Origin: an uncultured Gemmatimonadales bacterium
GTDB taxonomy: Bacteria; Gemmatimonadota; Gemmatimonadetes; Gemmatimonadales; Gemmatimonadaceae
Length of the DNA stretch: 64,000 nt
Reading direction: 5' to 3'
Assembly: GCA_963707505.1 (NCBI GenBank)
Contig: CAVPQB010000004.1
Location: 736,001 to 800,000, forward strand
Positions 51,438 through 64,000 of this stretch are shown here, in pieces. A program made the position numbers and the translations under genes. Each line of letters begins with the position of its first letter. Position 1 is the stretch's first letter. The notes beneath the pieces are model-generated. The model searched no databases, was not told the origin of the DNA, and saw nothing but the letters and a program-made list of their open reading frames with translations.

Positions 51438-51492
51438 GACCCGAAAGCTAACTCCGGCAGAGATGCACGGTGTTAGCCATGCTGTCCGTTCG

Positions 51493-53071
<1,579 letters not shown>

Positions 53072-55376: not shown

Positions 55377-55562
55377 CTAAGGCTTCCAAAGATCGCACTC
55401 CGAGGGGTCGTGGCGCCACCCTGCGGCCATTTTGCGCGCGGTGACGGTGCCAGGGCGCCCTGGGATGAGGGAGACGGCTCCGCGGCGCGCAGCGAGCGGC
55501 GGCGCGGTGTAGCGTTTTGCCCACTGGTGCGTAATACGTGTGCTGGTATACGATTAGACCGG

Positions 55563-55922
55563 ATGCTCAGACCGACCCAAAGCGTACGACGTAATAGCGG
55601 GCGGTGGGGATGGCGGCTGGCAGCTGTGCTGGCCATCCTTGCCCAATGCTGGATAGCGGTGGCTCCTCTTTCAGAGAGCCGCGGCTTTGGGCTATCCGCG
55701 CACGTCGAGGCGACGGGAAACCATCGGGGTCATTTCACGCACGACGCTGCGTCGTGCGCCGCGTGCTCCGTGCTGTCGCTCCACGCATTGAGCTCGCATC
55801 CGGCGGCGGTCCCGGTGCCGCCCGGCCAGCCGGTCTTCCGGGCGGTCACTACCGCTGAAGCGTGGATCGAAGCAGTTCAGCTTAAATCGGTCCAGCCCAG
55901 GGCGCCTCCCGCGTCTGTGTAG
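55563..55922 (+). CDS. DUF2946/CruR-like leader protein 1 (CxxC + RAPP), putative metal-sensing arrest peptide
   Basis: 119 aa: basic then hydrophobic N-terminus, HVEATGNH..H..HDAASCAAC, Pro-rich linker, RAPPASV-stop. Ends 74 nt before the TolC-family gene. Confidence 0.75.
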   Translation: MLRPTQSVRRNSGRWGWRLAAVLAILAQCWIAVAPLSESRGFGLSAHVEATGNHRGHFTHDAASCAACSVLSLHALSSHPAAVPVPPGQPVFRAVTTAEAWIEAVQLKSVQPRAPPASV

Positions 55923-55996: not shown

Positions 55997-57268
55997 ATGT
56001 CCCTAGCACGCTGGACTGCGCTGCTCGCACTCTGTGCAAGCAGCGCGTCTGCCCAACAACGTCCCGATACCCTGCTACTGACTCGCGCGGCCGCGATCCA
56101 GCTGGCGCTGGAGCACAATCCGCAGCTCGACGTCGCGCGGGAGCAGATCGCCGAGTTTCGCGCAGCCAGGGTTCAGGCTGTCGCAATCCCCGATCCGGCA
56201 GTCACGGCTTCGCTGGATGGGCAGCCAGGCCTGTTCCGCTCTTCAGCCACAGGCCAGAAGAATGTCGGTGCAACGCTGCAGGTTCCCTTTCCTGACAAGT
56301 TCCGTTTGCGCGGTAACGTTGCCGGCGCCGACATACGCAACGCGCAGGCGAACTATACGGCGCTTCAGCGTCAGATCGCTGCGCAGACCGCCGAGCAATA
56401 CGATTCGCTGTTGGTGGCGCTGCGACATCGAACGGATTTTACCGAGGCACAGACGCTCGCGAACGACTTTCTCAAGCGCACCCAGGCGCGGTTCGACGCA
56501 GGAACGGCGCCGCGACTCGACGTCATCAAGGCGCAGGTGGACGTTGCGGCGGCGACCAACGATTTGATATCGAACGAGCGCGCGATCGCGAACGCCTCAT
56601 CAGGATTGAATCGCTTCATGGGGCGCTCGCTTGGCGCTCCAATTGTCGCGACGGATTCGCTGACGGTGCCGCCGTCGCTTCCATCGGTAGATGTGCTCGA
56701 GCGCGAGGCGTTGAACGCGCGGCCGGAGCTCGCAGGTCTGATGGCGCAGCGCAAGGGAGCACACTCGGCCACGACTCTCGCGCGTGAATTCTGGCTTCCC
56801 GACCTCACCCTCGGCGTTTCGCGCGACGTGTCAGGCAACAGTGGGCCGGGAGTTTTCTCTACCGGCCTCGCATTTCCGCTTCCGTTGCTGTTCTGGCAGC
56901 ACACTAAGGGTGAGGTGAGCCAGTCCCTGCACTTCGAGCGTGAGTTGGCCGCGTCGTACCGCGATCTCGAAGCGGAAGTTGGCCAGGACGTGCGAAACGC
57001 ATACGCGGCAGCGAGCACTTCACTACGGCAGGCGATCTACATACGTGATCAGCTGCTTCCATCCGCACGTGAAGCTTACCGGTCGACAGCGGCGAGCTAC
57101 GCGATCGGCGGATCGTCGGCGTTTGAAGTCATCGACGCGCGCCGCACTCTGCTCGATGCGCAGAGTCAGTATTCCGACGCACTGGCCGCGGCCAACACAT
57201 CCAGATCCGATCTGGAACGCGCGGTAAGTGTGCCACTCGAAACCATCGCTTCCGGACCGAACCAATGA
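55997..57268 (+). CDS. TolC-family outer membrane efflux protein (CzcC-like)
   Basis: Signal peptide, AIQLALEHNPQL, RFDAG..PRLDV and Y..G.SS.FEVIDARR. First gene of the RND operon. Confidence 0.9.
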   Translation: MSLARWTALLALCASSASAQQRPDTLLLTRAAAIQLALEHNPQLDVAREQIAEFRAARVQAVAIPDPAVTASLDGQPGLFRSSATGQKNVGATLQVPFPDKFRLRGNVAGADIRNAQANYTALQRQIAAQTAEQYDSLLVALRHRTDFTEAQTLANDFLKRTQARFDAGTAPRLDVIKAQVDVAAATNDLISNERAIANASSGLNRFMGRSLGAPIVATDSLTVPPSLPSVDVLEREALNARPELAGLMAQRKGAHSATTLAREFWLPDLTLGVSRDVSGNSGPGVFSTGLAFPLPLLFWQHTKGEVSQSLHFERELAASYRDLEAEVGQDVRNAYAAASTSLRQAIYIRDQLLPSAREAYRSTAASYAIGGSSAFEVIDARRTLLDAQSQYSDALAAANTSRSDLERAVSVPLETIASGPNQ

Positions 57269-58413
57269 GCATGAAGTCATTCTGTTTGATTGCTGGCCTC
57301 GTTCTCTTGTCGGCTTGTGGAGGGTCGGATGAATCAGCGAATACGGTGACGCCGGCATCGGCCAAGCCATCCAACCTTACACTCACAGCGGAACAACAGG
57401 CGCGTATTCATCTGGACACCATTGCTCCGTCGAAGTTTTATCCCAGCGTATCGACGACCGGTACCGTCGCGTTCAACGGCGACAGGTCGACGCAGGTGCT
57501 GTCACCGGTTTCGGGTCCCGTGACCAAACTGCTCGTGCAGCCGGGTACTGTAGTCGCGAGCGGCACCGCACTGGCAACGGTTTCGTCTCCCGACTTCGCG
57601 GCAGCCGTAGGAAGCTATCGCAAGGCGGTTGTGACGGCGACCAACCTTCAGCGGATCGCCGACCAGGACGTGCAACTCTTCAAGACCGACGCGCTGTCGC
57701 GTCGGGATCTCGAGCAGGCCCAGACCGACGCCGCGTCTGCGGTCGCTGACAGAGAAGCGGCGCTGGAGCAGATCAGATCCCTTGGCATCGACCCGGCCGT
57801 AATCGCGAACGCGACGAACGGTGGCAGTACTGGAGCAGTGCCGGGTGTAATTCGTGCGCCGATTGCCGGAACGGTCGTCGAGCGACTCATCACACCAGGA
57901 CAGTTGCTCCAGGCAGGGGGAACGCCAGCGTTTACCATCGCGGACCTGTCGACTGTATGGGTGATGGCGAACGTGTTCGAGTCCGATCTCGCGAGCGTGC
58001 ACAAGGGCGAGCACGTGACCGTGACTAGCGCAGTGAGTCCAACGCCGTTCGACGGCACTGTCGACTACGTCGGTGCACTGGTCGATTCTTCCACTCGCGC
58101 GACATCCGTACGCCTTGTGGTGCGCAATCGCGATGATCTGCTGAAGCGAGACATGTACGTCAATGTCGCGATCAGGGGCGATCGCCAGAAGTCGGGAATT
58201 CTTGCACCGGTAGATGCCGTGCTTCGCGACGATCAGAATCTTCCGTTCGTCTTTGTCGCGACCGGCAATTCGCCAAATGTGCAGTACGCGCGGCGCAGCG
58301 TCACACTCGGCGCGCGTATCGGCGATGACTACGAGATACTGTCCGGACTGAATCCCGGTGACCGTGTGGTTGCAGAGGGTGCGTTGTTCCTGCAGTTCGC
58401 GGAGAGCCTGTGA
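57265..58413 (+). CDS. RND periplasmic adaptor subunit (CzcB/CusB-like)
   Basis: LSAC lipobox, biotinyl-lipoyl halves (SPVSG, IRAPIAGTV), IADLSTVWV.ANVFE and GL.PGDRVV..G. Confidence 0.92.
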   Translation: MSMKSFCLIAGLVLLSACGGSDESANTVTPASAKPSNLTLTAEQQARIHLDTIAPSKFYPSVSTTGTVAFNGDRSTQVLSPVSGPVTKLLVQPGTVVASGTALATVSSPDFAAAVGSYRKAVVTATNLQRIADQDVQLFKTDALSRRDLEQAQTDAASAVADREAALEQIRSLGIDPAVIANATNGGSTGAVPGVIRAPIAGTVVERLITPGQLLQAGGTPAFTIADLSTVWVMANVFESDLASVHKGEHVTVTSAVSPTPFDGTVDYVGALVDSSTRATSVRLVVRNRDDLLKRDMYVNVAIRGDRQKSGILAPVDAVLRDDQNLPFVFVATGNSPNVQYARRSVTLGARIGDDYEILSGLNPGDRVVAEGALFLQFAESL

Positions 58414-61400
58414 CCCCTCCCGATTCCAATGGTTCGCCGGACGGGTCCGGCGCAAACCATCCACGGAGTGCGCTTCCACAGATAGAGGAGCCCGGTTTGG
58501 CGGAGGGCGCGGCACAATCGTTTGTGAATCGTGTCGTCGCGGCGTCGCTGGCACAGCCACTGTTGACCGGCATTCTCGCGATTGTGTTGATAGGCGTCGG
58601 TGCGTGGTCGTTTTCCCGCCTTCCTGTGGATGCGTATCCCGATGTTTCGCCGCCGATGGTCGAGATCATATCTCAGTGGCCCGGCCATGCTGCGGAAGAG
58701 GTGGAGCGACTGATAACCGTACCCGTCGAAGCTGGTATGAACGGCACGCCGAACCTGAAGGTCATGCGCTCGGTTTCGTTGTACGGACTGTCCGATGTGA
58801 CGATGACTTTCGAGGATCGGACCGACACGTATTTCGCACGGCAGCAGGTGTTCGAGCGCATACCGGATCTGAGCCTGCCTGACGGTGTGTCGTCGTCCGT
58901 CGCGCCGATGTCGTCGCCATCGGGGCTGGTTTATCGATACGTGGTCCAGAGCCCTGACCGCACGCCGATGCAGCTCAAGAACATTCAGGACTGGATCCTG
59001 GAAAAGCAGTACAAGGCGGTTCCTGGTGTTGCCGACATGTCGTCGCTTGGCGGCCAGACGATGCAGTATCAGGTGCTCATCGATCCCACCAAGCTTGCCG
59101 GCGCCGGACTCAACGTGTCCACGCTGGCGAACGCGCTTGGCAACAACAATGGGAACGCGGGCGGCGGCTTCTACTCTGAGGGCGGGCAGTTCTACTACGT
59201 TCGCGGACTCGGCCGAATCAACACTCTTGAGGACATCGCAAACACCGTAGTCGCCGTGCAGAACGGGACACCGGTGCTGGTGAAGGACGTCGGCTCCGTC
59301 GAGATCGGTTATGCGCCGCGGCTCGGTCAGTTCGGCTTCAACGACCAGAACGACGCCGTGGAAGGCGTGATCCTGATGCGCACGGGCGAGCAAGCGCAGA
59401 CGGTGCTCAAGCGCGTCGAACAGAAAACGAACGAGCTCAACACCACAGTTCTTCCGAAGGATGTGAAGGTCGTCCCATTCTACGATCGCAGCGATCTCAT
59501 ACAGCTCACGACCAAGACGGTGGAGGACAATCTCCTCCGCGGTATCATCCTCGTAGTGGTGATTCTGATCTTCTTCCTGTACGACATCCGCTCGGGGCTC
59601 ATCGTCGCGGTATCGATACCGCTGGCGTTGATGTTCGCGTTCATCTGCCTGGATCTCAAGGGCATTCCGGCGAATCTGCTGTCGATCGGAGCGATCGACT
59701 TCGGAATCCTGGTGGATGGCGCCGTAGTGATGGTCGAAAACATCCACCGGCAACTGGCGCGACGACACGGCACCGCGTATGACATAAAGACGGTGATAAC
59801 GGAAGCCGCCGCGGAAGTGGATCGTCCAATCGTGTACGCGATAGCTGTGATCATTGCAGGTTTCTCGCCGATCTACGTCCTTACTGGACCGTCAGGCAGG
59901 CTGTTCAAGCCGATGGCGGATACCACGATCTTTGCTTTGATAGGATCGTTACTGGTGACCATCACGCTTCTTCCGGTGGTGTGTGCGGTGGTGTTGCGCG
60001 GCGGTGTGAAGGAACGCCGGAACGCGACCTTCGAATGGATCCTCCTGCAATACAGGCGCGGTCTGGAATGGAGTCTCCGGCACGCGAAGCTCGTACTGTG
60101 GGGATCGATTGCGATCGGCGTTGCATGCTTGCTGATTATCACGCGGATCGGTGGCGAGTTCATGCCCAAGCTCGACGAGGGTGCGCTCTGGGTTCGAGCG
60201 ACTATGCCGTACACGATCTCGTTCGAGGAGTCCTCGAAGATCGTCCCGCAGATAAGGGCGATCATCAAGTCGTTCCCCGAAGTCACACTGGTAGCGTCTG
60301 AGCACGGACGTCCGGATGACGGAACCGACGCAACGGGATTCTTCAACGCCGAATTCTACGTTGGGCTCAAGCCGTACGGAGAGTGGCACGGCAAGTATCG
60401 CACAAAGCCGGAGCTGATCGCGGCCATCGATCAGAAGTTGCGCGCCTATCCTGGAATCACGTTCAACTATACCCAGCCGGCGGAAGATGCCGTCGACGAA
60501 GCCGAGACGGGCCTCAAGAGCTCGCTCGACGCGAAGATATTCGGGACCGATCTGAAAGTGCTGCAGGAGCGGGGAACACAGATCAAGAAGGTGCTTGATC
60601 AGGTGCGCGGTATCAATCAGGTTACGCTCGTTCAGGAGCTGGGCCAGCCGGCGCTGACTGTAACCGCGGATCGCGCGAAGATGGCGCGCTACGGTCTCAA
60701 CGTTTCGGATGTGAATGGGCTGATCGAGGCCGCTGTCGGCGGCGCGGCGGCAACGCAGGTCGTGCAGGGAGAGCAGTTATACGACCTGGTTGTGCGGTTG
60801 CAACCGCAGTTCCGTGAGACGGCCGACGAGATCGGCAACATTCTCATCGCGACGCCGAGCGGCGCACAGATCCCGCTTCGCGAGGTAACGACGCTCAAGA
60901 TCGATAACGGCGCGTCGTTCATCTACCGACAGGACAACTCGCGGTACATCGGTCTGCAGTATTCCGTGACCGGGCGCGATCTGGCCGGTGCAGTGGATGA
61001 TGCGCGAGCGCAGGTCGCGCGAAAGGTGAAGCTGCCGCCCGGTTACTCGATAGTCTGGGGTGGCGAGTTCGAAGAGTACACGGCCTCGCGTCGTCAGCTG
61101 CAGATAGTGTTGCCGCTGACGCTCGCGGTGATTTTCATCCTGCTATTCGCGTTGTATCGGAACTTCAAATTTCCATTCATCACCGTCGCCGGTGTGCTCC
61201 TCTCTGCGCCACTCGGCGGACTGGTTGCGTTGTGGATATCCGGGACTCCATTCTCGGTCTCGTCCGGGATCGGCTTTCTCGCGTTATTCGGTGTATCCGT
61301 GCAGACGGCCGTGGTCTACATCTCCTACGCCAACGAGCTGCGGATCGGCGGTCTTGGAATCTCGGAGGCGACGCTGGACGCTGCACTGCTGCGATTGAGA

Positions 61401-61598
61401 CCGATCATGATGACGGCACTCGTTGCGGCGCTGGGACTGCTTCCTGCAGCGTTTTCTACGGGAGTGGGATCTGATTCCCAGCGACCATTCGCGATGGTGA
61501 TCGTGGGCGGCCTCTTTTCGCGTCTTCTGCTGAGTGTGTTCCTGATGCCAGTATTGTACCTGATGGTGTCGCGCGATAACGACGAGCTGCACGTCTAG
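58410..61598 (+). CDS. CzcA/CusA family heavy-metal efflux RND permease
   Basis: LPVDAYPDVS, AEEVERLIT, SIGAIDFGILVDGAVVMVEN, EFMPKLDEG and RLRPIMMTALVA.LGLLP. Confidence 0.95.
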   Translation: MTPPDSNGSPDGSGANHPRSALPQIEEPGLAEGAAQSFVNRVVAASLAQPLLTGILAIVLIGVGAWSFSRLPVDAYPDVSPPMVEIISQWPGHAAEEVERLITVPVEAGMNGTPNLKVMRSVSLYGLSDVTMTFEDRTDTYFARQQVFERIPDLSLPDGVSSSVAPMSSPSGLVYRYVVQSPDRTPMQLKNIQDWILEKQYKAVPGVADMSSLGGQTMQYQVLIDPTKLAGAGLNVSTLANALGNNNGNAGGGFYSEGGQFYYVRGLGRINTLEDIANTVVAVQNGTPVLVKDVGSVEIGYAPRLGQFGFNDQNDAVEGVILMRTGEQAQTVLKRVEQKTNELNTTVLPKDVKVVPFYDRSDLIQLTTKTVEDNLLRGIILVVVILIFFLYDIRSGLIVAVSIPLALMFAFICLDLKGIPANLLSIGAIDFGILVDGAVVMVENIHRQLARRHGTAYDIKTVITEAAAEVDRPIVYAIAVIIAGFSPIYVLTGPSGRLFKPMADTTIFALIGSLLVTITLLPVVCAVVLRGGVKERRNATFEWILLQYRRGLEWSLRHAKLVLWGSIAIGVACLLIITRIGGEFMPKLDEGALWVRATMPYTISFEESSKIVPQIRAIIKSFPEVTLVASEHGRPDDGTDATGFFNAEFYVGLKPYGEWHGKYRTKPELIAAIDQKLRAYPGITFNYTQPAEDAVDEAETGLKSSLDAKIFGTDLKVLQERGTQIKKVLDQVRGINQVTLVQELGQPALTVTADRAKMARYGLNVSDVNGLIEAAVGGAAATQVVQGEQLYDLVVRLQPQFRETADEIGNILIATPSGAQIPLREVTTLKIDNGASFIYRQDNSRYIGLQYSVTGRDLAGAVDDARAQVARKVKLPPGYSIVWGGEFEEYTASRRQLQIVLPLTLAVIFILLFALYRNFKFPFITVAGVLLSAPLGGLVALWISGTPFSVSSGIGFLALFGVSVQTAVVYISYANELRIGGLGISEATLDAALLRLRPIMMTALVAALGLLPAAFSTGVGSDSQRPFAMVIVGGLFSRLLLSVFLMPVLYLMVSRDNDELHV

Positions 61599-61599
61599 G

Positions 61600-61980
61600 G
61601 TGCCGTTTCGGATGATGGCAACTGGTGCAGGCGCGCGCGGGCGGCCGCGGGGACTCAGAGTCTTCGCGCTCGCCTTCGCGTTGCTGCAGTTCGGCCTTCA
61701 GGGGACGTTTGCGGTCAGCGACGGCTACGAAGAGCAGGCCAGTTCGCACGTCGCGCCCGTTCACGCCGAGATACCGGGCAATCACCACCATCGCCTGCAC
61801 GACAGCGATTGTGTCGTCTGTCACGTCCTTGCGACTGGCTCGACGGTGCCCCCGCGCGCAGTTCCAGCGTGGCTCGACGCCGAGCGTGTTTCGGTCGCGC
61901 CTCCGACCGAGATCGGTGCACGTCCCTACGCCCTCGTTGCCGGCTCCCGGCTCGCTCGCGCACCGCCGGTGAAAGTGTGA
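61600..61980 (+). CDS. DUF2946/CruR-like leader protein 2 (CxxC + RAPP), putative metal-sensing arrest peptide (start 61600-61615)
   Basis: Basic then hydrophobic N-terminus, HAEIPGNHHHRLHDSDCVVC, Pro-rich linker, RAPPVKV-stop. Ends 86 nt before a TonB-dependent receptor. Confidence 0.78.
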   Translation: MPFRMMATGAGARGRPRGLRVFALAFALLQFGLQGTFAVSDGYEEQASSHVAPVHAEIPGNHHHRLHDSDCVVCHVLATGSTVPPRAVPAWLDAERVSVAPPTEIGARPYALVAGSRLARAPPVKV

Positions 61981-62066
61981 TCTGAAGGTGGAGGCAGAGC
62001 CTCCGCCATGGATTTACGTCGCCGCCACTTTCTGGCGGCGCGATCACACTATCGCATTCAAAATTC

Positions 62067-64000
62067 ATGTCAAATCAACGCGTTTCAGCGCGCGTGGTGG
62101 CGTGTGCGCTCTCCCTGGCCGCGTGCGTCGCCGCCGTTCCAGCGCACGCTTTCGCACTGTCATCAGTCGCGGAAGTCACCGATGCCGGCATCGGCCCGAT
62201 GGCACGTGGCGATCTCACCGGCACAGTAACCGATAGCGCATCCGGTCAACCGCTTCCCAGTGCCGAGGTGAGCGTGATGCAGGGTGGCCGCATCGTGCTC
62301 ACAGCAAGCACCGATGCTTTCGGCCGGTACATCGCGCACGACCTTCCATCCGGCACGTACACCATCAACGTGCGCCTGATCGGCTTTCGGATTCAATCGC
62401 GTGATGTAGCCGTTGGTCCCTCGGGCGACATTCGCGCAGACTTTCGCTTACCGGTGGTAGCGCTGAGTCTCTCTTCAGTTGCTGTAACCGCTGCGATTCC
62501 GCTCGCAGTCGATACGAGGTCCGGCGATCAACGCTTCAAGCAGGACTCATATCACGGCGCGCCGACCAACACCACATCGCAGATCCTTCAGCAGTCGATT
62601 GCCGGCGCAGCTCGTGCACCGACGGGTGAGGTACACATCCGCGGGCAGCACGCCGAGTACACGTATTATGTCGATGGTGTACCCGTGCCGGCTGGAATAT
62701 CTGGCAGCCTCAACGAGCTGTTCGATCCCAGTATCGTGAACCAGATCGATTTTCAGACAGGTGGCTGGGACGCAGAGTATGGAAACAAGAATGCCGCCGT
62801 TGTGAACGTCCAGACGCGCATTCCTGTCGGCGGATTTCATAGCACCATCTCCGGGTACGGCGGCTCGTTCAACACGAACGGCGAGGGAATCACGGCGAGC
62901 ACGAACAGCGGCCCGTGGGGATTCTTCGTTTCAGGCAGTCGCAAATCCACTGACATGCGACTGGAACCCGTAGTTTTCGATACCGCGCGCGACAAGGTGG
63001 TCAACTTCCACAACCATGGAGAGGATTACTCCGCCTTCGCCAAGGTGCAATACACCCCGAACGCATCCAACGTGTTCGACCTCGACGCGAGCCTCTCGAC
63101 GACGCGTTTCCAGGTGCCCTATGATTCGACCGGTAACGTCGTGCTGGATGACCATCAGCGCGATCGCAACGCGTTCGTGAACCTCGGCTATCGTCACATC
63201 TTCGGCGCTGACACGACCGCCGGAGTCGAAGGCGGTGCGACCACGCAGTCTCGCGTGGCGGAGCTGTTCGTTGGAGGCTTCGTGCGATCCGGTGGGTTGA
63301 TGTACATGCCGGGCGCTGGCGACTCTGCGCAATTCGTGTTCTTTCCAGATACGCTCAACGCGTACAACCTGCGCGAAAATCGCAATTTCACGACGTACGG
63401 CATCAAGGCCGACTACACCGTGCATCCTGCGCGCGAGTTGGAATTCAAGTTCGGAACGCTGAGCCAGTACACGACTGGCCACGAAGATTTCGTCACCACG
63501 ACGAATTCCGGCGCGTCGGGTCCTGCATCCAATTCGAATCTCAAGGGATACGATGTCGGTGGATACGCCCAGACCTCGTACTCTCCAATTGAGCGGTTCG
63601 AGATCAGAGCCGGTGTTCGCTACGACGCGCATAATGCACCATTTGCCGGGACACAGACTCAACTGAGTCCCCGTATTCGACTCAACTTCTTCCCGGACCC
63701 TGGCAACACATTCTACCTGTACTACGGGCGACTCTTCGTTCCGACCAACGTCGAGGATCTCCGCGCGATTACGAGCGTCGCACAGCAGGGAGTCACCGCA
63801 GCACCAACGCTGCCGGAGCGCGACAACTTCTACGAGGCCGGGTACATTCACCGCTTCCCGTTCGGCCTCGTGTCCAAGTTTGCGGGCTACCACAAGCAGA
63901 GTACGCCGGGCATCGATGACAACACGGTCCCAGGCTCAGCTGTCGTCACGTCGGTGAACATTGCGCAGGTACGCATCACTGGACTCGAGACTGTACAGGA
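62067..64000 (+). CDS. TonB-dependent receptor, truncated by the window end
   Basis: Manual translation: signal peptide MSNQRVSARVVACALSLAAC..., carboxypeptidase-regulatory-like domain, plug VHIRGQHAEYTYYVDGVP, GGWDAEYG and barrel strands GVRYD/LSPR. The start and the window end are in the same frame. Confidence 0.9.
   Translation, partial: MSNQRVSARVVACALSLAACVAAVPAHAFALSSVAEVTDAGIGPMARGDLTGTVTDSASGQPLPSAEVSVMQGGRIVLTASTDAFGRYIAHDLPSGTYTINVRLIGFRIQSRDVAVGPSGDIRADFRLPVVALSLSSVAVTAAIPLAVDTRSGDQRFKQDSYHGAPTNTTSQILQQSIAGAARAPTGEVHIRGQHAEYTYYVDGVPVPAGISGSLNELFDPSIVNQIDFQTGGWDAEYGNKNAAVVNVQTRIPVGGFHSTISGYGGSFNTNGEGITASTNSGPWGFFVSGSRKSTDMRLEPVVFDTARDKVVNFHNHGEDYSAFAKVQYTPNASNVFDLDASLSTTRFQVPYDSTGNVVLDDHQRDRNAFVNLGYRHIFGADTTAGVEGGATTQSRVAELFVGGFVRSGGLMYMPGAGDSAQFVFFPDTLNAYNLRENRNFTTYGIKADYTVHPARELEFKFGTLSQYTTGHEDFVTTTNSGASGPASNSNLKGYDVGGYAQTSYSPIERFEIRAGVRYDAHNAPFAGTQTQLSPRIRLNFFPDPGNTFYLYYGRLFVPTNVEDLRAITSVAQQGVTAAPTLPERDNFYEAGYIHRFPFGLVSKFAGYHKQSTPGIDDNTVPGSAVVTSVNIAQVRITGLETVQ

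Follow-up and report, generated by a model that had tools for sequence, protein, structure and literature searches.

A DUF2946 leader peptide between a czcA-like pump gene and a TonB-dependent receptor gene in an uncultured Gemmatimonadales bacterium

A small reading frame lies between the gene of a czcA-like heavy-metal pump and that of a TonB-dependent receptor in the genome of an uncultured Gemmatimonadales bacterium (Gemmatimonadota, Gemmatimonadaceae), and the pump operon is itself headed by a paralogous small reading frame. This arrangement raises the question whether the internal frame (leader 2) is a genuine arrest-peptide leader, whether expression of the receptor passes two such checkpoints in series, and whether both checkpoints respond to metal in the same sense. 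An earlier note on this DNA had proposed that the series could give a band-pass response to metal concentration. The window is the whole stretch of DNA that was analysed, 64,000 nucleotides long (contig CAVPQB010000004.1). Its relevant features are the following.

55549..55554, + strand: TACGAT, candidate -10 hexamer, 8 nt ahead of the leader 1 ATG (near-leaderless start)
55563..55922, + strand: leader 1, paralogous ORF with CxxC, 44 aa and RAPP, heading the pump operon; 33% identity to leader 2
55997..57268, + strand: czcC-like outer-membrane factor (PF02321; start set by aligning relatives)
57265..58413, + strand: czcB-like adaptor, 4-nt overlaps with both neighbours
58410..61598, + strand: heavy-metal RND pump of the divalent type (czcA-like), DFG-D-EN motif, nearest ZniA/ZneA
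61596..61601, + strand: TAGGGT, weak candidate -10 hexamer (czcA stop plus 3 nt), 10 nt ahead of the ATG
61612..61980, + strand: leader 2, DUF2946 arrest-peptide ORF of 122 aa; alternative starts GTG 61600 and ATG 61615
61648..61740, + strand: N-terminal hydrophobic helix behind a basic stretch (AlphaFold helix 13-43, pLDDT about 79-92)
61747..61824, + strand: predicted metal site, His/Cys cluster H46, H51, H58-60, H63, C67-x-x-C70, H71
61957..61968, + strand: RAPP arrest motif, 45 residues past CxxC and 3 codons ahead of the stop
61975..62049, + strand: predicted three-helix RNA in the 86-nt spacer (P1, 61975-61982 with 62042-62049; P2, 61987-62007; P3, 62020-62040)
62067..64000, + strand: TonB-dependent receptor, 803 aa, continuing beyond the window to the equivalent of 64478

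Leader 2 and the genes around it

On the + strand, leader 1 is followed by czcC, czcB, czcA, leader 2, the receptor gene and a gene for a 264-aa protein. The czcA-like gene ends with a TAG stop codon at 61598, and the in-frame starts of leader 2 (GTG 61600, ATG 61612 and ATG 61615) follow 1, 13 and 16 nt past this stop, as the earlier note had it. Its reading of the frame as CxxC, 45 residues and RAPPVKV agrees with the translation, which begins with basic residues and continues with a hydrophobic helix, HAEIPGNHHHRLHDSDCVVC, 45 residues and RAPPVKV before the stop, and with a match to PF11162 (DUF2946) of 31.3 bits (cut-off 23.7). The CxxC consists of C67 and C70 and the RAPP of R116-P119, with the stop after V122. 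The AlphaFold model of leader 2 is mostly disordered except for short helices (pLDDT 63); its N-terminal helix is probably an export signal or membrane anchor.

In the 29 aligned leaders H63 and C67 are invariant, and so are the R, P and P of RAPP; several of these relatives have one Cys only, and PF11162 was matched at E <= 0.05 by 11 of the 29. The distance from RAPP to the stop is 3 codons in 47 of 63 motif-bearing receptor leaders. The spacing between CxxC and RAPP is 43-46 residues in 49 of the 63 receptor leaders, the remaining 14 being without a CxxC in range. The genome has 17,159 stop-to-stop frames of at least 100 aa, of which 16 terminate in R[AG]PP and 2 carry a CxxC 43-46 residues ahead of a terminal R[AG]PP. 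A profile built from the 29 leader relatives had exactly two matches in the genome, leader 2 and leader 1. Chance is excluded for leader 2, since 2 of 17,159 frames fit the motif and the profile matches only both leaders; the fixed RAPP-to-stop distance and spacing likewise rule out a chance ORF. The dN/dS of leader 2 is 0.12 against its counterpart in genome G015 and 0.22 against that in G005, with a relaxed linker (0.72), and judged from such comparisons leader 2 is under purifying selection. A role as secreted metal chaperone only was rejected on the fixed stop distance and spacing combined with the variable linker. On sequence grounds leader 2 is a real DUF2946 member and an arrest-peptide leader. 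Since R, P and P are invariant and arrest has been shown for CruR with two Pro codons in the P and A sites (PMC12992588), the ribosome would be expected to arrest in the same way at the RAPP of leader 2. By analogy with known family members, arrest at RAPP combined with control in cis of the next gene is likely.

The pump encoded upstream of leader 2 matches TIGR00914 at 912 bits (cut-off 701), and its DFG-D-EN motif matches that of CzcA and ZneA and differs from the SilA/CusA-type row. Searched against the three replicons of Cupriavidus metallidurans CH34, it scored 819 bits with probable ZniA, 730 with ZneA and 726 with CzcA. The ZniA meant here is a chromid gene ~10 kb from ZneA, named by its position and the tag order in PMC11647595, and its identity to the pump is only 42%. 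A plasmid search for the pump returned only pumps of ~42% identity. Leader 1, which is divergent from a malic enzyme gene, fails the Pfam cut-off (PF11162 only at E 0.37). A leader was found upstream of czcC in all 22 pump loci with sufficient upstream DNA, and the leader-family profile was positive in 50 of 61 genomes, a tally that takes in the unpublished G007 and G017. The genome is 83% complete and has a full-length Rho gene on contig C3; a second Rho-like gene (G000:C4:373029-374102) scored 445 bits, below the cut-off. Elsewhere in the window a gene on the - strand (51473-53071), which we take to be PEP-carboxykinase-like, seems frameshifted, with its last ~130 residues in another frame (ORF 51493-51888). 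This appears to be a sequencing error or a pseudogene.

The spacer of 86 nt between leader 2 and the receptor has no U tract, and the receptor has no Shine-Dalgarno sequence. A receptor profile had no match among PDB sequences at E <= 1e-5. Deriving the ligand from structure was abandoned: the model has a pLDDT of 53 and fits BtuB, PqqU, FecA and OprC with little difference between them (9-16% identity). At the level of this model the matches indicate only the class of TonB receptors. The ligand is probably a divalent-metal complex. A Cys-x-Cys in the C-terminal loop, beyond the window, is found in this genome and in 4 of 11 aligned orthologues and is not family-wide; one further aligned orthologue has a single Cys there. 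The 264-aa protein encoded 3' of the receptor (window-equivalent 64673-65467, G000:C4) looks exported and, tested via a 76%-identical orthologue at locus L022, has no Pfam or NCBIfam match. In G013 its gene is intact and lies directly past czcA.

Recurrence of leaders among relatives and the metal sensed

A GTDB scan with a receptor alignment confirmed 393 stretches, the best 80 of which were kept. A leader lies directly upstream of the receptor in 64 of these best 80 of 393 loci; 11 are without a leader despite long flanks and 5 were too short. In 15 of the 64 leader-bearing loci among the best 80 the leader lies within ~40 nt of the ABC-3 permease gene that ends a ZnuA-ABC-3 uptake operon (both labels from Pfam). 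Leader and ABC-3 gene overlap by 4 nt in 9 of these 15 coupled loci, and in 11 of the 15 a first leader heads the uptake operon too. A czcA gene was found within 40 nt of the leader in 1 of the 64 loci and at 531 nt in one more. A script chose the leader starts in the best 80, and individual gaps may be inaccurate; some of these loci are the same DNA as the pump-locus set, and the two sets are not independent. In G038, from another family, the same czc-leader-receptor order occurs with a 6-nt gap. G044 has the reversed order, receptor first and pump second, and G052 has a tandem with another receptor type. Because tandems occur in 11 of the 15 ABC-3-coupled loci as well as in G038, G044 and G052, two leaders in one gene string are, as judged from gene order, a recurring design in the order, the usual form being uptake followed by uptake.

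Of the 12 loci in the genus whose downstream flank is available, 3 have leader 2 and the receptor behind czcA (those of this genome, G015 and G005), and the series is thus dispensable. In G016 (L003), whose czcA is 97% identical, a 34-nt remnant of leader 2 runs straight into the 3' end of the downstream gene and marks a deletion scar. Of the gene that otherwise follows the receptor, G003 and G012 have retained the 3' end alone.

Receptor genes were also found in other settings. Of the 11 leaderless receptor orthologues, nine (L090, L106, L114, L122, L132, L136, L140, L145 and L147) have upstream a gene pair encoding ~640-aa and ~260-aa proteins. One short gene upstream of a leaderless receptor presumably encodes a LytTR response regulator-like protein; a two-component system may replace the leader at such receptors. 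A gene for a DtxR-family repressor lies divergent to one leaderless receptor paralogue, and two paralogues have a TTAG-N6-CTAA palindrome, which we take to be an MntR/DtxR box. Many receptor leaders (L070-L084, L095, L108) form a group that is divergent to an mgtE gene, and a ZnuA/ABC-3 operon or czcA often lies downstream in convergent orientation.

The metal sensed is most likely zinc, as suggested by the neighbours: ZnuA, ABC-3, the divalent RND pump, MgtE, the DtxR-family repressor and the TTAG-N6-CTAA palindromes. Mn, Co, Ni or Cu are less likely candidates. This genome has no ZnuA match and no Fur-family match; a DtxR-family gene lies beside Nramp. None of the 22 genomes of the genus (G007 and G017 included) has a convincing Fur/Zur-family match, the one weak match having an E of 1.9e-4. 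A lack of Fur throughout the phylum was rejected, as a Fur match of some strength occurs in all 24 genomes of the other two families. A pump orthologue (at least 69% identity) was found in 30 of 61 genomes and ZnuA in 22, with neither in 10 and both in a single genome, where ZnuA is a fragment, versus 10.8 expected; in these counts, which take in the unpublished G007, G017 and G028 (27, 22 and 1 of 58 without them), kin are not independent. Among the 41 high-quality genomes the pump is present in 17, ZnuA in 17, both in 1 and neither in 8. The pump state and the ZnuA state each occur in all three families, and pump and ZnuA operons often lie behind the same endonuclease IV gene and have the same leader family. 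The exclusion could reflect habitat, metal-rich versus metal-poor. ZIP transporters were discarded as its cause, being present in 54 of the 61 genomes.

The spacer RNA, the proposed switch and rival readings

Helix P1 of the predicted spacer RNA pairs the last codon and stop of leader 2 with a segment 18-25 nt ahead of the receptor ATG. Folding of the spacer compared to shuffles gave z = -5.4, and the three-helix junction is kept in all three genomes, with all 75 cells paired (3 sequences). P3 has 3 two-sided changes in these 3 sequences, a number equally high in 15 of 500 shuffles. When a ribosome was modelled at RAPP, its P site holding the first Pro in line with the toeprints of CruR (PMC12992588), its edge fell inside P1 and the pairing of P1 went down from 1.0 to 0.36. 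The same model was applied to 25 of 34 leader junctions, 7 near-duplicates and 2 junctions with unclear starts having been dropped and the starts having been picked by eye. The modelled stall lowered the opening cost of the interval -20..+10, which was picked after viewing four intervals, by a median of 5.35 kcal/mol at 14 czcC junctions and of 4.1 kcal/mol at 11 receptor junctions, versus a median effect of 0.0 at 342 control gene pairs. A drop of at least 3 kcal/mol was found at 17 of the 25 junctions versus 14% of controls, and the effect had the wrong direction at 3 of 25. The two junctions of this genome gained 4.8 and 5.7 kcal/mol; with the interval -15..+8 there is no gain at this receptor junction (3.5 to 5.0). 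Direct duplexes between the leader 3' end and the start region were among the three best when compared with non-cognate partners at 10 of 25 junctions, and z < -2 was reached at 28% of junctions versus 5% of 510 controls, many junctions giving nothing. CCT serves as the first Pro codon in 13 of 20 czcC leaders, versus 313 of 2,793 Pro-Pro pairs genome-wide, which creates an anti-Shine-Dalgarno-like CCTCC. The C>G skew, which is the hallmark of the rut site in CruR, is 0.18 at this junction, a value reached by 12% of genes. Because the modelled stall opens the start regions and the skew is unremarkable, both junctions are predicted to be RNA switches that are on when the ribosome stalls. In these models the receptor junction looks more like start-region unmasking of the CutF/SecM type than like Rho termination of the CruR type, with Rho polarity as a likely follower.

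The preferred reading, to which we give an even chance, is that of two gates of the same sign in series, on when a divalent metal, probably zinc, is scarce. Under scarcity the ribosome would stall at the RAPP of leader 2, P1 would melt and the receptor start region would open. Metal on the His/Cys site of the nascent chain would release the stall, as in CruR; P1 would then re-form and translation of the receptor would fall, with Rho polarity following. As leader 2 lacks a clear ribosome-binding site and its start lies 13 nt past czcA, its translation would depend on an open leader 1. The pump would be a starvation-phase system like Zni/Zne, and the output a sharpened or two-step response to scarcity in which the receptor comes on last, without a band-pass. 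It is more doubtful that a starvation operon is run by two zinc-sensing nascent peptides in series, with the CzcCBA "exporter" and the TonB receptor together replacing ZnuABC-type uptake in a genus without detectable Fur/Zur. If this were true, an RND pump would serve metal acquisition, and stacked arrest peptides would set two thresholds on one mRNA.

Whether the receptor passes both gates depends on the czcA/leader 2 junction. Leader 2 starts 13 nt behind czcA on the same strand and hence is not the first gene of its string. A consensus scan of both leader junctions found no intrinsic terminator and no sigma-70 promoter, which bears out the earlier note for the stretch between czcA and the frame. 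The short gap, the lack of a terminator and of a clear ribosome-binding site, and the 4-nt overlaps in the uptake tandems favour series wiring, with two checkpoints one behind the other, and we regard this wiring as plausible and indeed rather probable. The claim of two checkpoints in series thus stays plausible for a co-directional string behind leader 1, with the reservation that a TAnnnT hexamer sits at the junction. This hexamer, TAGGGT, fits the element that precedes stand-alone leaders. A weak promoter of its own at the czcA stop would give a near-leaderless mRNA, and the receptor would pass one checkpoint only. Such independence of the gates, which we consider unlikely, would agree with a TAGCGT at the same distance (10 nt) ahead of the leader ATG in G015, with TAnnnT 6-10 nt ahead of the start in ~21 of 30 other leaders (by eye; one is TAGGGT), with the enrichment of TAnnnT at divergent gene heads (89 of 602 versus 38 of 830 internal genes), with the promoter-like motif kept by the internal czc leader of G044, and with a leader-receptor module that is freely gained or lost. 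However, the stop codon supplies the TA, and 141 of 823 genomic TAG stops fit TAGnnT, so the hexamer at the czcA stop is no better than chance; TAnnnT also occurs in 17 of 60 internal gene pairs of comparable gap. The hexamer is missing from the same arrangement in G005 and G038 and from 14 of the 15 ABC-3-coupled leaders, being present in only 1, and since no terminator lies ahead of leader 2, any internal start would be supplemented by read-through. A genome-trained promoter profile contained TAnnnT only, without a usable -35. Upstream of family f3 leaders (L015, L017, L020, L041, L042) a GGAAC-N16-GTTA-like motif overlaps TAnnnT; it resembles, we assume, an ECF sigma promoter.

Since the predicted RNA logic is alike at both junctions, the sign of each gate rests on the peptides, and a band-pass requires opposite signs: metal would have to switch leader 1 on and leader 2 off. 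Metal would prolong the stall at leader 1, as in CutF, turning the exporter on, and higher metal would release the stall at leader 2, as in CruR, turning the receptor off; the receptor would be made at intermediate metal only, an outcome that we hold to be quite improbable. DUF2946 proteins of opposite sign do exist, CutF versus CruR (PMC9973294), the pump carries an export motif, and the sites of the two leaders differ (H-D-x-x-x-C-x-x-C versus a more His-rich site). In a quick tree of 109 columns, in which 67 of 133 forks stayed open, a separate clade holds most czc leaders (22 of 25 rows), leaders 1 and 2 fall in different clades, and the czc label changes 10 times versus 25.8 times when shuffled, so that leaders mostly sort by target; the tree label TBDR2 wrongly takes in some true orthologues, and only contrasts of czc with other leaders were used. 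Given 33% identity and separate clades, the signs of the two leaders may differ. However, pump-side and uptake- or receptor-side leaders were found to be sisters, with 59% identity within G038, 61% within G044 and 57% between L011 and L095, and in G038, which has the same order as here, the ligand set of both leaders is identical, with a single Cys. In the common tandem the uptake genes come first, it would make little sense for an importer to be off when starvation is deepest, and the nearest pump relatives, ZniCBA and ZneCBA of C. metallidurans, are up in EDTA-starved cells (PMC11647595). Together with the same predicted RNA logic at both junctions, these points speak against the band-pass of the earlier note, and with the pump-ZnuA exclusion added the balance leans to gates of the same sign. 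A strictly copper-dependent system as in CruR, in which Cu releases the stall, Rho terminates in the spacer and the RNA helices are pause sites only, seems very unlikely. It would fit the spacing of 45 residues and the stop distance, both as in CruR (PMC9426467), the presence of Rho, two hairpins without a U tract, and the C>G skew in relatives (mean 0.24-0.26 versus a genome median of 0.09). The skew at this junction is unremarkable, however, proline-rich tails alone raise C, the spacer has 86 nt and not 162, the neighbours are ZnuA, ABC-3, divalent RND, MgtE and DtxR rather than PepSY or copper chaperones, and the single Cys of several relatives fits it poorly.

Comparison with known systems

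Leader 2 itself is ordinary, as DUF2946 genes upstream of czcC-type and of TonB genes have both been published. A literature search, mostly of openly readable papers, found nothing on two such leaders in one operon and nothing on Gemmatimonadota members of the leader family, and three supplementary files of PMC9426467 contain no Gemmatimonad, ZnuA, ACR_tran or OEP; the neighbour table of PMC9973294 may already list such cases. New are the internal, probably translationally coupled position of the leader, as CruR homologues are reported systematically in first operon positions (PMC9426467), the two-leader architecture recurring across an order, and a zinc-type rather than copper context that includes ZnuA/ABC-3 operons. 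The locus offers a test of whether some heavy-metal RND pumps act in starvation, a role proposed for ZniCBA. Pairs of sister leaders, pump-side in one genome and uptake-side in another, are naturally suited to finding the sign determinants of DUF2946, and such pairs address the question of CruR-type versus CutF-type sign.

The closest described arrangement is CruR (Bp2923) - crtA/bfrG - bp2921 of Bordetella pertussis, where the uORF upstream of the receptor has CxxC, 45 residues and RAPP, Cu releases the arrest and Rho terminates (PMC9426467). Leader 2 resembles CruR in being a DUF2946 protein with the same CxxC-RAPP spacing, three residues from RAPP to the C terminus and a TonB-dependent receptor gene next, probably in an N-terminal export signal or membrane segment (here a basic stretch and a hydrophobic helix), and probably in its sign, with metal shutting import. 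Unlike CruR it is internal to its operon, has extra His ligands in a Zn-type divalent context and belongs to a different phylum; its 86-nt spacer has a helix that ties the stop codon to the start region, whereas that of CruR has 162 nt with a rut site. The earlier assignment to the CruR-bfrG type therefore stands for a DUF2946 uORF directly upstream of a TonB-dependent receptor, but not for a leader in first position, and the spacer is more CutF/SecM-like. The copper receptor CrtA (BfrG) is described in PMC12914433, with a PepSY_TM gene 3' of the receptor in >75% of loci; here there is no PepSY gene 3' of the receptor.

In CutF - cutO - cutG of Rhodobacter capsulatus a Cu-induced stall unfolds a stem-loop (PMC9973294; bioRxiv 10.1101/2025.02.05.636593). 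CutF-like genes most often precede czcC/cusC-type genes, with TonB genes in second place, and some of them are not Cu-specific (PMC9973294). Leader 2 shares with CutF the DUF2946-like leader and, as a prediction that depends on the interval chosen, a stalled ribosome that opens RNA structure over the next start region. CutF, however, has CxxxC and its stall is prolonged by Cu, whereas leader 2 has CxxC and metal more likely releases the stall; unlike in CutF, the receptor here has no Shine-Dalgarno sequence to unmask. CzcI, encoded before czcCBA on pMOL30 of C. metallidurans, is likewise a small DUF2946-like protein (PF11162 E 0.026) with a His-rich stretch, and its DCGVCH resembles the DCVVCH of leader 2. 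Unlike leader 2 it has RAPD instead of RAPP, a shorter spacer and no second leader and receptor after it, and it has been described as lacking the proline motif (PMC9973294). ZniCBA and ZneCBA (ZneA, PDB 4k0e) are the nearest characterised pumps to the czcA-like gene, at only ~40% identity; the accessible text of PMC11647595 describes control that involves antisense RNA and no leader peptide.
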